DNA from: Rhabdothermincola salaria
GTDB lineage: Bacteria; Actinomycetota; Acidimicrobiia; Acidimicrobiales; Acidimicrobilacustridaceae
Assembly (NCBI RefSeq): GCF_021246445.1
Contig: NZ_JAJQXW010000002.1
Span: 682,001-746,000, forward strand
Length of the DNA stretch: 64,000 bases
Direction of reading: 5' to 3'
The notes below the pieces were generated by a model. It did no database searches. It worked only from the letters and a program-made list of their open reading frames with translations, and was not told the origin of the DNA. Positions 57,383-60,706 of this stretch are shown here, in pieces. A program made the translations under genes and the position numbers. The first letter of the stretch is position 1. Each line of letters begins with the position of its first letter.

Positions 57383-57546
57383 CGGTTCCCCCCGGGTCGT
57401 GGCCGCGGCCATGTTGGCAGCCGGGTGCAGGAGCCGCAACACGCCGCAGGCCCGTCGCGTGCCCGTCGTGGGCCTCCGGTGCCCGGGGGCGTGAACCCAC
57501 CCGCCCGGACGACCTGACCGATGTCACACCGCCTCGGCGGATCGTC

Positions 57547-57575
57547 GGGAACCAGGGCCGCTCCTGGTGCGACTA
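57547..57575 (+). promoter_or_regulatory. SigC-type ECF promoter
   Basis: GGGAAC-N17-CGACTA, 8 nt before GTG 57584, heading an operon that encodes a SigC-like sigma. Confidence 0.75.
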
Positions 57576-57583
57576 CCACCAGC

Positions 57584-58252
57584 GTGCCCCGGTCCCCGCG
57601 CCCCGCATCCGCCCGAACTCGGTCGCATCGCAACCCCGACGGCCCGACCCCGGGCGTGGTGCGGGTGATCGTCGTCCTCGTCGCCTTGGCGCTGCTCGCC
57701 GCCGCGTGCGGCAGCGACGGGTCCGCGGCCTCGTTGAACGGCCTCCAGCAGGACCCTTCTCCGCAGGTGGGGGAGGTGGCACTGCCCGACGTGCTCGATG
57801 GCGGAGCTTCCTCCGCCATGCGGGCGCAGTCGGATGAGCTGCTGTTGGTGTTCTTCGGGTTCACCAGCTGCCCCGACATCTGCCCCACCACCATGGCGAC
57901 CATCGCCACCGCGCTCGACCAGCGCCCCGAGCTGGTGGACGAGGTGGAAGTCGCCATGGTGAGCGTCGACCCCGAGCGGGACACGGCGGATGTGATGCCG
58001 CGCTACGTCACCTCGTTCGTCGACCGGGCCCGGGCCCTGCGCACCGACGACCCGGCGACCCTGCGGGCCGCGGCCGACGCGTTCGGGGCGTCCTACCTGG
58101 TCACCACCGACGCCGACGGTGAACCCGATGTCGGGCACTCGGCCTATCTGTACGGCGTCGACGACCAGGGCCAGGTCGTCGTGACCTGGAGCTTCGGCGT
58201 CACCGCCGACGAGCTCTCGTCCGATCTCTCCACCCTGCTGACCCAGTCCTGA
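57584..58252 (+). CDS. SCO/SenC family copper chaperone lipoprotein
   Basis: Lipobox LAAAC, FFGFTSCPDICP (CxxxC), VSVDPERDT, VGHS; alternative start 57656. Confidence 0.93.
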   Translation: MPRSPRPASARTRSHRNPDGPTPGVVRVIVVLVALALLAAACGSDGSAASLNGLQQDPSPQVGEVALPDVLDGGASSAMRAQSDELLLVFFGFTSCPDICPTTMATIATALDQRPELVDEVEVAMVSVDPERDTADVMPRYVTSFVDRARALRTDDPATLRAAADAFGASYLVTTDADGEPDVGHSAYLYGVDDQGQVVVTWSFGVTADELSSDLSTLLTQS

Positions 58253-58262
58253 GGAGGACCCC

Positions 58263-58907
58263 TTGACCACCGACCGACCGCTCACGTGCATCGACGGCCG
58301 ACGAACGCGGCCTCGCCGCCTCCTGGTCGTGCCTCTGCTGGCCGTGGCCGCGATGGTGCTGGCCGCGTGCGGCTCCACCGACGAGGCCGACGGCGGGGCG
58401 GCGGCGACCGTCGAGGTCCGCGACGCCTGGGCGCGCACGTCCCCCAGCGGGCAGATGAACGGCGCCGCCTACATGGTGCTGGTGGGGGGCGAGGAGGACG
58501 ACCGGCTGGTGGGGGTGAGCGTCGCCTCCGACGTGGCCGCTCGGGCCGAGCTGCACGAGACGGTGATGGCCGACGACGACGCCACCGGGATGGGCGGCGA
58601 TGCCCAGATGGACGGCGATGCCCAGATGGACGGCGATGCCCAGATGGACGGCGATGCCCAGATGGACGATGCCGGCATGGACGGGACCCCGACCACCATG
58701 GCCGCAACGCCGGGGATGATGACCATGCACGAGGTGTCTGCCATCGACGTGCCGGCCGGTGGGGAGGTGGCGCTCGAACCGGGCGGCTACCACGTGATGC
58801 TGCTGGAGCTGGCCGCCCCCCTCGTGGCCGGTGAGACGGTCGATCTCACCCTCGAGCTCGAGCAGGCCGGCACCGTCACCGTGACCGCCGAGGTCCGCAC
58901 CGCGTGA
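58263..58907 (+). CDS. PCu(A)C copper chaperone lipoprotein with Met/Asp-rich insertion
   Basis: Lipobox LAAC, DAWAR, GAAYM, ELHET, M-x21-HVM (PGGYHVML); GAGGAGG RBS. Confidence 0.93.
   Translation: MTTDRPLTCIDGRRTRPRRLLVVPLLAVAAMVLAACGSTDEADGGAAATVEVRDAWARTSPSGQMNGAAYMVLVGGEEDDRLVGVSVASDVAARAELHETVMADDDATGMGGDAQMDGDAQMDGDAQMDGDAQMDDAGMDGTPTTMAATPGMMTMHEVSAIDVPAGGEVALEPGGYHVMLLELAAPLVAGETVDLTLELEQAGTVTVTAEVRTA
58590..58661 (+). repeat. 4 x 18-bp coding tandem repeat (M-G/D-GDAQ)
   Basis: ATGG(G/A)CGGCGATGCCCAG four times, then a degenerate copy. Confidence 0.95.
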
Positions 58908-58917
58908 GGTCACGGCC

Positions 58918-59331
58918 GTGAGTCGATCCCCCCGTGGGGCGAGCGTGGCCGTCACCGCGGTGCTGCTGGTCGGCGCCGCGGCCCTGGGCGCATGGCTGGT
59001 GCTCGGGGGATCGGAACGAGGCCCCGGGGCCGTCCCCCGGTTCGAGATGGTGGATGCGTCGACTCCCGGTGACGTCGAGATCGTGATCCCGGCTGGTACC
59101 GCGTCCCGCTTGGCGAGCGGGGCGCCGGTGAGCGCCGTCCCCCGCCTGATCGAACCCCACGTCGGCGACGTGGTCGTCGTGCGCAACGAGGACGTCGACG
59201 CGGCCTTCCTCGGTCCGTTCTTCGTGCCGGCCGGGGAGACCATCGCCCACCGAGCCCTCAGCACCGGTGTGCTCGAAGGGTCCTGCTCGGCCCATGAGGA
59301 CGGACGGATCACCGTGGTGGTGGCGGCATGA
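58918..59331 (+). CDS. Small membrane-anchored cupredoxin-like protein
   Basis: N-terminal TM, P.LIE..VGD.VVV.NED, PAGET, G...G.CSAH; sits in the copper operon. Confidence 0.6.
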   Translation: MSRSPRGASVAVTAVLLVGAAALGAWLVLGGSERGPGAVPRFEMVDASTPGDVEIVIPAGTASRLASGAPVSAVPRLIEPHVGDVVVVRNEDVDAAFLGPFFVPAGETIAHRALSTGVLEGSCSAHEDGRITVVVAA

Positions 59332-59915
59332 ACACGGCTCGCCCGCGCCGGGTTGTGAGCCGACGAGGGAGCGGCGATGCTCGGGGGGTGGACGACACGA
59401 CGCGGCTGTTGCTCGCCGCCCGAGACGGTGACCGGGACGCCTTCGCCGAGTTCGTGCGCCGCACCCAGCCCGAGGTCCACCGGCTCTGCCGGGCGCTGAG
59501 CAGCCCGTCGGCCGCCGACGATCTCACCCAGGAGACCTACCTGCGGGCACTGGACGCGCTCGGGCGCTTTCGAGGCCGATCGTCGGCGCGCACGTGGTTG
59601 CTGGCCATCGCCCGCAACGTGGCGGCCGACGACATCCGTCGTCGGGGAGCACGCGGACGCCTGCTGTCCCGGCTGGGCGGCCCCGACGAACCCATGGCCT
59701 CACCAGGAGCCATGGTCCACACCGCGGACCTGTTGGCCCGCCTCCACCCCGATCGTCGCGACGCCTTCGCGCTCACCCAGCTGCTGGGCCTCAGCTACGC
59801 CGAGGCCGCCGAGGTCCTCGACTGCCCGGTGGGGACGATCCGCTCCCGGGTGGCGCGTGCCCGCGAGGACCTGGTCGACGCGCTTCGCGACCCTCGCGCC
59901 GAGGAGACGGGATGA
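59328..59915 (+). CDS. ECF sigma factor, SigC-like (alternative start 59388)
   Basis: TQPEV, ADDLTQETYLRA, SSARTWLLAIAR, LTQLLGLSYAEAA..CPVGTIRSRVARAR, as I recall mycobacterial SigC. Confidence 0.88.
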   Translation: MNTARPRRVVSRRGSGDARGVDDTTRLLLAARDGDRDAFAEFVRRTQPEVHRLCRALSSPSAADDLTQETYLRALDALGRFRGRSSARTWLLAIARNVAADDIRRRGARGRLLSRLGGPDEPMASPGAMVHTADLLARLHPDRRDAFALTQLLGLSYAEAAEVLDCPVGTIRSRVARAREDLVDALRDPRAEETG

Positions 59916-60706
59916 CCGGCCGGAAGGACACTCCGATCGCCCTGCCGGCCGAGTGCTCGCCGTGGCGCGAGGCCCTCTCGGCCCGGATCGACGGAGAGCT
60001 CCCCGCGGCCGACCACGGCGGCCTCGACGACCACCTGGCCGGGTGCGAGAGCTGCCGGGCCTTCGCCGGTGACGCGGAGGCCTCCCACCGGGCTCTTCGG
60101 CTCGGTCCCGCCGAAGCCGTGGGCGACCGGACCGACGCGATCATGGCCGCCTGGGACGACCGCCAGGATCGAGACGGGCCGTCGCGCCGGCACCGTCCAG
60201 CGCGACGGGTCGGTGTGGCGGCGCTGGTGGCGGCCGCCCTGGTGGTGCTGGCCGGCCTGGCCGGGTGGTGGCCCGGTGGAGGCGGCGCGGACGCCGAACC
60301 GGCGTTGGCCTTCGCGTCGGGCGTGGCCACCCCGGCCCCGGCGGAGGGCAACACGGCGGTGTACGTGTCGCTCACCAACGACGGAGGCTCGGACCGCCTC
60401 CTGGGCGTCGACACCGACGTCGCCGAGCGGGCCACGCTGCACGCCACCGAGCAGCGCGACGGCCTGGTGCTCATGACCGGCCGCGACGACTACCCCGTGC
60501 CGGGCGACACGACGGTCGTGTTCCAGCCGGGGGGCGCCCACGTGATGCTCGAAGGGCTCCGGCGTCCGCTCGAGGTCGGGGACCGGCTCGAGGTGGTGCT
60601 CGAGTTCGAACGCTCGGCCTCGCGCACGCTGATGGTCGAGGTGGTGTCGCTCAGCGAGGTCACCGAGGTCGTCGGTATCGCCTCGCAGCTGATGGGCCCC
60701 GCCTGA
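59912..60706 (+). CDS. Anti-sigma factor: ZAS (zf-HC2) + TM + PCu(A)C copper-binding domain
   Basis: C..REALSARIDGE..HLAGCESC; TM VGVAALVAAALVVLAGLAGWW; H-x10-M-x21-H-x-M; ATGA overlap with sigma. Confidence 0.87.
   Translation: MTGRKDTPIALPAECSPWREALSARIDGELPAADHGGLDDHLAGCESCRAFAGDAEASHRALRLGPAEAVGDRTDAIMAAWDDRQDRDGPSRRHRPARRVGVAALVAAALVVLAGLAGWWPGGGGADAEPALAFASGVATPAPAEGNTAVYVSLTNDGGSDRLLGVDTDVAERATLHATEQRDGLVLMTGRDDYPVPGDTTVVFQPGGAHVMLEGLRRPLEVGDRLEVVLEFERSASRTLMVEVVSLSEVTEVVGIASQLMGPA

Follow-up and report, generated by a model that had tools for sequence, protein, structure and literature searches.

A SigC-Like Sigma Factor and an Anti-Sigma Factor With a PCu(A)C Domain in a Copper-Delivery Operon of Rhabdothermincola salaria

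A Five-Gene Operon of Copper Chaperones and Regulators

The window analyzed here is a 64,000-nucleotide stretch of the Rhabdothermincola salaria genome (assembly GCF_021246445.1, contig NZ_JAJQXW010000002.1, positions 682,001 to 746,000 of the forward strand). Within positions 57547-60706 it holds a five-gene operon on the plus strand, which encodes a SCO protein, a PCu(A)C copper chaperone, a protein of 137 amino acids (p137), an extracytoplasmic function (ECF) sigma factor, and an anti-sigma factor that joins a zinc-finger anti-sigma (ZAS) domain, a transmembrane (TM) helix, and a second PCu(A)C domain in a single chain (Table 1). Gaps of 10 nt separate SCO from PCu(A)C and PCu(A)C from p137, and both the p137/sigma and the sigma/anti-sigma junctions are 4-nt overlaps of the ATGA type. 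Minus-strand genes flank the operon: those upstream encode ABC ATPases, and those downstream a luciferase-like oxidoreductase and a molybdopterin enzyme. The tight packing of these five genes had been described in an initial annotation of the window, and open reading frames (ORFs), translations, and Pfam matches confirm all of its elements.

The longest ORF for SCO spans 57521-58252 and has its CxxxC motif, CPDIC, at residues 117-121. As the promoter described below falls inside the N-terminus of this long ORF and a signal peptide with a lipobox (LAAC; ...LLAAAC) comes after it, the gene probably starts at GTG 57656. The free PCu(A)C chaperone carries M-x21-H-x-M at residue 155, and in its copper site a Met/Asp-rich loop made of the repeat units (DAQMDG)n separates the first His from the Met. 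A promoter/terminator scan of the operon found no sigma-70 promoter-like site, and the one terminator-like hairpin that it returned, inside SCO, was taken as a chance occurrence. Elsewhere, the genome contains another SCO-PCuAC pair, unlinked to the operon, and a third SCO gene; given the unlinked pair, the operon in the window appears to be an extra, conditional set.

Table 1. Features of the operon, domains of the anti-sigma factor, and related genes in the same genome and in other loci of the class (positions refer to the window unless another locus is given).
Feature	Position	Strand	Remarks
ECF-type promoter (predicted)	57547..57574	+	-35 GGGAAC, 17-nt spacer, -10 CGACT
SCO1/SenC copper chaperone, lipoprotein	57656..58252	+	PF02630, E 6.2e-27; probable start
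Free PCu(A)C copper chaperone, lipoprotein	58263..58907	+	PF04314, E 5.3e-33; Met/Asp-rich insert
Tandem repeat	58589..58668	+	4.4 copies of an 18-nt unit (98% matches) within the free PCuAC gene; codes for (DAQMDG)n
p137, 137-aa membrane-anchored protein	58918..59331	+	invariant C-x-x-H; no Pfam match
ECF sigma factor, SigC-like	59328..59915	+	Sigma70_r2 5e-17, r4_2 5e-16
Anti-sigma factor, 264 aa (ZAS, TM helix, PCu(A)C, single chain)	59912..60706	+	start overlaps sigma stop by 4 nt
Anti-sigma domain, residues 13-87 (predicted cytoplasmic)	59948..60172	+	zf-HC2; four helices in model
Single TM helix, residues 100-119	60209..60268	+	AlphaFold model; basic stretch RRHRPARR before helix
PCu(A)C beta-sandwich, residues 132-244 (predicted extracytoplasmic)	60305..60643	+	PF04314; putative Cu(I) ligands H177, M188, H210, M212
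Second SCO-PCuAC pair	G000:C1:1996279-1997408		unlinked to the operon
Third SCO	C1:411799-412368
4-TM anti-sigma factor	L009:1471-2118
4-TM anti-sigma factor	L091:1183-1995	-
4-TM anti-sigma factor	L094:1222-1878	-
4-TM anti-sigma factor	L086:1492-2094
4-TM anti-sigma factor	L081:1501-2106
4-TM anti-sigma factor	L010:1504-2136

Architecture of the Anti-Sigma Factor

In a Pfam scan of the anti-sigma gene, zf-HC2 (residues 15-49, E 1.4e-9, 38.3 bits against a cut-off of 22.2) and PCuAC (residues 140-237, E 5.7e-25, 87.8 bits against a cut-off of 29.4) were both matched above their cut-offs in the same chain. The sequence HLAGCESC at residues 41-48 supplies the motif H41-x3-C45-x2-C48, with C16 upstream, the basic stretch RRHRPARR occupies residues 93-100, and the C-terminal domain has the exact spacing of PCu(A)C copper sites, H177-x10-M188-x21-H210-x-M212. 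Each of the elements that the initial annotation had noted in this protein (C..HxxxCxxC, the basic stretch, one TM helix, and the copper-site spacing) is thus present.

An AlphaFold2 model of the anti-sigma factor, built on an alignment of 39 fusions of this type, has a mean pLDDT of 85.2, with values >90 across the PCuAC domain and a short low-confidence linker after the TM helix. When searched with Foldseek, its beta-sandwich matched AccA (9yah) and ECuC (3zja) with a TM-score to target of 0.88 and root-mean-square deviations of 1.6-2.1 Å; Thermus PCuAC (2k6w), PmoF (6p16), and DR1885 were also matched, and the scores to target of the named PCuAC chaperones range from 0.78 to 0.88. The family profile of the fusions matched PCuAC chains at up to 6e-27, and its first 81 positions matched RsiW (5wuq_C, 4.6e-8, positions 9-81), with a weak match to RslA (3hug_B, 0.016). 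The union of ZAS domain, TM helix, and PCuAC domain in one chain is therefore supported by the Pfam scan, the AlphaFold model, and Foldseek.

Because the basic residues precede the TM helix, the positive-inside rule predicts a cytoplasmic zinc-finger domain and a PCuAC domain on the outer side of the membrane. We infer that the outer domain binds Cu(I) and that the ZAS domain sequesters the sigma factor, the latter on the grounds of family membership, translational coupling, and conserved adjacency of the two genes.

The SigC-Like Sigma Factor and Its Partner Loci

Among NCBIfam models, the sigma factor matched PRK12535 (163 bits, cut-off 290) and SigC PRK09649 (152 bits, cut-off 219), with RpoE as the next named model (91 bits). 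Its best matches in the PDB are domains of Mycobacterium tuberculosis SigC, namely sigma-2 in 2o7g (1.5e-21) and sigma-4 in 2o8x (3.3e-15), and when the SigC model was run across the genome, the sigma factor of the window scored best, at 151 bits against 77 for the next protein. SigC is thus its closest named relative, in agreement with the initial annotation, and since its score stays below the equivalog cut-off of the SigC model (152 < 219 bits), we call it SigC-like rather than SigC. The sigma ORF has 20 extra N-terminal residues relative to its orthologues (47-57% identity), which begin with "MD.LTRL"; an alternative start at GTG 59388 matches these N-termini and may be the real one. A regulatory N-terminal extension has been reported for M. 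tuberculosis SigC (PMC7826278).

We surveyed the surroundings of the fusion in other genomes, as the initial annotation had suggested. An orthologous sigma factor (47-57% identity; 85% in locus L026) adjoins the fusion in six of seven distinct loci, and copper-trafficking genes do so in five of the six fusion loci that are long enough to judge. The window has the order SCO, PCuAC, p137, sigma, fusion. In L026, the fusion is 81% identical to that of the window and starts where the sigma gene ends. A YcnI (DUF1775) gene and the sigma gene are followed by a convergent fusion gene in L003/L011, and a divergent YcnI gene is followed by sigma and fusion in L013, while L012 has sigma and fusion with a convergent CopD gene and a YcnI-like match further out. 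In genome G159 (L066/L126), the gene set of the window is reordered as fusion, sigma, PCuAC, SCO, PCuAC, p137. The fusion of genome G012 (L004; L125, G012:C114:9000-26000) lies between genes for CobW-family GTPases of the metallochaperone type.

Recurrence and Distribution of the Fusion

Of the 24 proteins that a word-based search retrieved at E <= 0.001 from 5.8 billion, seven (that of the window included) have both Pfam domains. In a profile search of 1.84 billion cluster representatives, 34 of the best 150 matches span the whole profile in one stretch, with lengths of 218-267 aa. Among 173 collected proteins, our own domain profiles identified at least 42 fusions of one anti-sigma domain with one PCuAC domain. 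The HxxxCxxC motif is kept in all 42, and the copper-site motif H-x10-M-x21-H-x-M is exact in 32 and near-exact in 36 of them. In the alignment of 39 fusions, which come from different sources, share 27-81% identity, and have co-linear domains, H41, C45, C48, and H210 are invariant, and H177, M188, and M212 are conserved in at least 90%. Two of ten fusions checked bear the source names "copper chaperone PCu(A)C" and "copper(I)-binding protein," and one comes from an Acidimicrobiia metagenome-assembled genome.

The genome records that carry the fusion are assigned to Rhabdothermincola sp. or to an Acidimicrobiia bacterium, Rhabdothermincola being a member of the Iamiaceae within Acidimicrobiia. 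The full fusion is present in 3 of 41 close relatives (G000, G012, and G023), and the congener G003 has a shortened form. Among 401 genomes of the class, a full-length match was found in two (G000 and G159), in a tally that takes in G308, G247, and G417, each with a zinc-finger-only match; these three genomes contribute to no other result. A scan of metagenomes yielded 39 loci, with one close fusion among them on a 1.2-kb contig.

A tree built from 211 PCuAC domains shows clustering of the fused ones, with 13 label changes compared with 38.7 in shuffles. The free and the fused PCuAC domains of the window share ~30% identity and lie far apart in the domain tree, and the idea that the fused domain arose by a recent duplication of the free one was rejected on these grounds. 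The shortened form of the congener (L002, G003:C84:8664-12245) is a TM-PCuAC protein that is 54-57% identical to residues 70-255 of the fusion. It shares with the window a neighboring gene for a molybdopterin enzyme, an arrangement that points to loss of the regulatory half.

The initial annotation had itself raised the worry that the fusion might be an artefact. An error of assembly or gene calling, or a decaying gene without function, would be in line with the rarity of the fusion in the class (two of 401 genomes) and with the shortened form in one congener, but the fusion is a single open frame on an 868-kb contig, its domains are co-linear and its ligands conserved in 39 aligned fusions from different sources, and the 4-nt start-stop overlap with the sigma gene recurs in L026. 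With at least 42 fusions recovered across independent genomes and metagenomes, we regard this explanation as refuted and as having next to no chance of being correct.

Promoter and Regulon

The predicted ECF-type promoter before SCO, with a predicted transcription start at ~57580, is the only exact match to its motif in the 64-kb window and one of three exact matches in the 3.9-Mb genome. GGGAAC followed by a 17-nt spacer and CGAC[T/C/A] was found in the intergenic regions of 9 of 10 loci inspected; in relatives the motif precedes genes for the orthologous sigma factor as well as anti-sigma and copper genes. A stricter form, CGGGAAC-N17-CGAC[T/C], was searched by script in 59 loci of the class (211,749 bp), which gave 21 sites, two rows of which represent the same place (L081 and L112). 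All except one (20/21) are followed within 450 bp by a gene for a ZAS anti-sigma factor, YcnI/DUF1775, PCuAC, or SCO that reads in the same direction; the remaining site is at a locus edge. Since these loci were picked for their copper or anti-sigma genes, the scan tests the position and orientation of the motif rather than which gene families can be regulated.

In the whole genome of R. salaria, the strict motif occurs twice, before the operon and at C2:263933, where it is antisense to an unrelated gene and was therefore rejected as a target. The looser form GGGAAC-N17-CGAC[TCA] has 10 sites, and the nine outside the operon were likewise rejected, as they lie in or next to unrelated genes and no recognizable copper, sigma, or anti-sigma gene stands beside them by Pfam. 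When spacer lengths were compared, the motif showed no genome-wide excess, so the case for the promoter rests on its position across genomes. The genome-wide scan did not list the motif at the second SCO-PCuAC pair or at the third SCO gene. We infer that the sigma factor transcribes from the motif at 57547-57574, and its own operon would be its only credible target in this genome.

Two further observations concern the motif in relatives. Upstream of the G012 fusion, at a distance of 88 bp, there is a sigma-type promoter despite the lack of a neighboring sigma gene. In L009 (1160-1290), seven tandem GGGAAC units of ~14 nt precede a functional-looking -35 element between the divergent sigma and anti-sigma genes.

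p137, a Putative Partner of SCO and PCuAC

The product of the third gene had been described as cupredoxin-like. The profile of its family weakly matches blue-copper proteins (5fc9_A at 0.0015, followed by amicyanins and plastocyanins), which agrees with that description, but the protein of the window lacks a Pfam match, and the Pfam family Copper-bind is matched by only 4 of 20 family members, at E 0.033 or worse. The family is unnamed, comprises proteins of ~130 aa, and has the invariant residues P58, G60, G68, P75, N90, D92, G99, C123, and H126. With respect to the cupredoxin ligand set (His...Cys-x2-His-xn-Met/Gln), the upstream His is missing from the p137 of the window, and C123 and H126 are invariant in the family. 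Members occur in 73 of 401 genomes of the class, and in the 20 loci compared (L106-L124 and the window) the gene directly follows SCO in 16 and/or PCuAC in 12. On the basis of these sequence patterns, p137 is probably a divergent cupredoxin and the third member of a conserved SCO-PCuAC cassette.

A Common 4-TM Anti-Sigma Factor and a Proposed Input-Module Exchange

The N-terminal half of the fusion profile matched many proteins of the class at ~1e-25 that have no PCuAC domain. In the anti-sigma factors of L009, L010, L081, L086, L091, and L094, the zinc finger is followed by a four-helix membrane domain (4-TM; Table 1). These anti-sigma factors adjoin the orthologous sigma factor plus YcnI, CopC-CopD, SCO, or PCuAC. 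The four-helix domain has the invariant residues H128 and H132 (H-x3-H), D175, and H189 (L009 numbering); it belongs to no Pfam family and is a candidate for an in-membrane metal site.

Some ECF36 sigma factors have been described as fused to anti-sigma factors with three to four TM helices (PMC8999054), while ECF36s4, the subgroup of SigC, was reported by Casas-Pastor et al. (2021) to have no discernible anti-sigma factor. The initial annotation had noted that mycobacterial SigC has no established anti-sigma factor; sigma factors of the SigC group outside mycobacteria do have them, in this class commonly of the ZAS plus 4-TM type. As the latter is the common partner in the class, the fusion is a variant input module rather than the first anti-sigma factor of the group. 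Since PCuAC takes the place of the whole 4-TM module, which itself bears invariant His and Asp residues, the fusion is best read, from these sequences, as the product of a swap in which one member of a copper-linked sigma/anti-sigma family acquired a different input module.

Proposed Mechanism and Direction of the Response

We consider it probable that the operon is an autoregulated ECF sigma/anti-sigma module that controls a private extracytoplasmic copper-delivery set and releases its sigma factor when copper is scarce. The ZAS domain of the last gene product would hold the SigC-like sigma factor at the membrane, and the anti-sigma factor would span the membrane once and display its PCu(A)C domain outside, where the metal state of this domain would decide the stability or conformation, and thereby the fate, of the whole protein. 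When Cu(I) is scarce, or when unloaded free PCuAC and SCO strip copper from it, the apo domain would render the anti-sigma factor unstable or inactive, possibly through regulated proteolysis by analogy with RsiW-type anti-sigma factors. The freed sigma factor would then act at GGGAAC-N17-CGACT to produce SCO, PCuAC, p137, and more of both the sigma and the anti-sigma factor. Once the chaperone pool is re-metallated, newly made anti-sigma factor would stay copper-loaded and the loop would switch off. As free PCuAC and SCO could both strip and return Cu(I), the sensor might report the loading of the chaperone pool. In relation to the initial annotation, which had proposed copper sensing by a PCuAC-fused anti-sigma factor, the architecture and the copper-delivery operon are real, and the role of the outer domain as copper sensor and the direction of sigma release are put forward here as a proposal.

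The direction of the response deserves particular attention. The genes linked to the fusion and sigma loci encode SCO, PCuAC, YcnI, CopC/CopD, and a cupredoxin-like protein, and no gene for an efflux ATPase, a multicopper oxidase, or CsoR/CopZ was found behind the motif in the loci read. Because the extracytoplasmic copper proteins behind the motif are on the supply side and the nearest named sigma factor prevents copper starvation, induction by scarcity is favored over induction by excess. The same module could nevertheless work with the opposite sign, in that excess Cu(I) would load the PCuAC domain and inactivate the anti-sigma factor, and SCO, the Met-rich PCuAC, and p137 would buffer envelope copper. 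The (DAQMDG)x4 insert of the free PCuAC is typical of high-capacity Cu(I) binders, the CopC/CopD neighbors in relatives bear copper-resistance family names, and both SigAb (PMC12153292) and CorE (PMC10141476) are reported to respond to excess copper. The lack of detoxification genes behind the motif, the assignment of SCO and PCuAC to families of cuproenzyme-assembly factors, and the role of the nearest named sigma factor in countering copper starvation (PMC7924339) argue against the opposite sign, which we consider unlikely. A somewhat smaller chance is given to the alternative that the fused PCuAC is a working tethered chaperone rather than an input, with the sigma factor being released by a zinc-thiolate switch in the ZAS domain (through cytoplasmic oxidation or metal displacement) or by generic envelope proteolysis, so that the fusion would couple chaperone dosage to the regulator. 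This would fit the existence of ZAS-less TM-PCuAC relatives, one of them in the same genus, the intact HxxxCxxC motif and upstream Cys in all 42 fusions, and the fact that most anti-sigma factors of this sigma group have no PCuAC domain. It fits less well with a separate free PCuAC in the operon or with the replacement of an entire 4-TM module with invariant His and Asp, which looks like an exchange of input modules.

Several observations weigh against a scarcity-released copper sensor. The G012 fusion has no sigma gene within 8 kb, and 6 of 42 fusions lack a copper motif recognizable by pattern. In the PCuAC tree, ZAS-less proteins are interleaved with the fusions, forcing at least six label changes, and some of these proteins are possibly gene fragments. 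The TM-PCuAC protein of G003 has neither a ZAS domain nor a sigma gene nearby, and from such relatives it is evident that the outer domain can persist as a plain tethered chaperone. As the loci were chosen by PCuAC, ZAS, or p137 similarity, the absence of detoxification genes is biased. Finally, the sequence does not fix the direction of the response, and the Met-rich insert would also suit buffering under excess copper.

Overall, we retain the autoregulated module released by copper scarcity as the preferred interpretation. A broader possibility, which we offer tentatively and hold with less confidence, is that the SigC-like ECF group serves Acidimicrobiia as a dedicated regulator of copper supply whose outer copper sensors are interchangeable, a 4-TM module with His and Asp residues in most genomes and PCu(A)C in a few. 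The PCuAC form would then measure the metalation of the chaperone pool rather than free copper, through Cu(I) exchange with the free PCuAC and SCO under its control.

Comparison With Known Systems

The N-terminal domain of the fusion resembles RsiW, the anti-sigma factor of Bacillus subtilis sigma-W (class I ZAS, 5wuq), by profile, and both are single-pass proteins with an outer domain. RsiW is controlled by regulated proteolysis; however, its outer domain is not known to be a metallochaperone, and it responds to envelope or alkaline stress. The ectodomain shares fold, Pfam family, and copper site with the PCu(A)C chaperones (2k6w, Streptomyces ECuC 3zja, Neisseria AccA 9yah, and 6p16), but these are soluble or lipid-anchored stand-alone proteins, whereas that of the window forms the ectodomain of a transcription regulator. 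In CnrYXH of Cupriavidus metallidurans, release of an ECF sigma factor depends on a periplasmic metal-binding sensor, as we propose here, and CnrH (4cxf) is among the PDB matches of the window's sigma factor. CnrYXH differs in that it consists of three separate proteins and responds to Ni/Co, with a helical CnrX that is not known to be related to PCuAC and a CnrY that is not known as a ZAS protein.

M. tuberculosis SigC (ECF36), the nearest named sigma factor by PDB and NCBIfam matches, has a role in copper supply and prevents copper starvation; it is described as monocistronic, not autoregulated, and without a known anti-sigma factor (PMC7924339). By contrast, the sigma factor of the window is translationally coupled to its anti-sigma factor and lies behind its own type of promoter. 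CorE of Myxococcus xanthus resembles it as a copper-regulated ECF sigma factor, and a 2023 review names CorE as the sole copper ECF, but CorE binds copper in the cytoplasm through a Cys-rich C-terminal extension of the sigma factor itself and has no anti-sigma factor and no outer sensor (PMC10141476). In SigAb-AabA-AabB of Acinetobacter baumannii, an ECF sigma factor with operon-encoded anti-sigma activity has a copper phenotype, but this is a response to excess copper with a mostly indirect regulon, and a PCuAC domain is not mentioned in the abstract (PMC12153292).

Although ZAS anti-sigma factors are themselves known, a class I ZAS anti-sigma factor with a metallochaperone ectodomain appears to be new, as do the conserved promoter before the operon and the copper genes of relatives, and the PCuAC form as a sensor swap. 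Full-text literature searches, which covered articles in part and did not extend to the supplement of Casas-Pastor et al. (2021) with its possible ECF36 subgroup contexts, found no description of the ZAS-TM-PCuAC architecture, and within that coverage the statement of the initial annotation that it knew of no characterized protein with this architecture is upheld. Little is understood of the ways in which bacteria sense extracytoplasmic copper scarcity; the SigC study of 2021 (PMC7924339) left this as an open question, with no anti-SigC factor known. The module described here is compact and fully specified, with a sigma factor, an anti-sigma factor, a promoter, three output genes, and four candidate ligand residues, and it suggests a simple, testable means by which a cell could measure the copper outside its membrane. 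In addition, the p137 family, conserved and as yet without a name, is indicated as a cupredoxin-like partner of SCO and PCuAC in the assembly of cuproenzymes. If the proposed mechanism is true, this would be the first case in which a sigma/anti-sigma switch has recruited a metallochaperone domain as its receptor, would provide a working model for the sensing of copper deficiency by SigC-type sigma factors, and would add the metallochaperone fold to the known input domains of anti-sigma factors.

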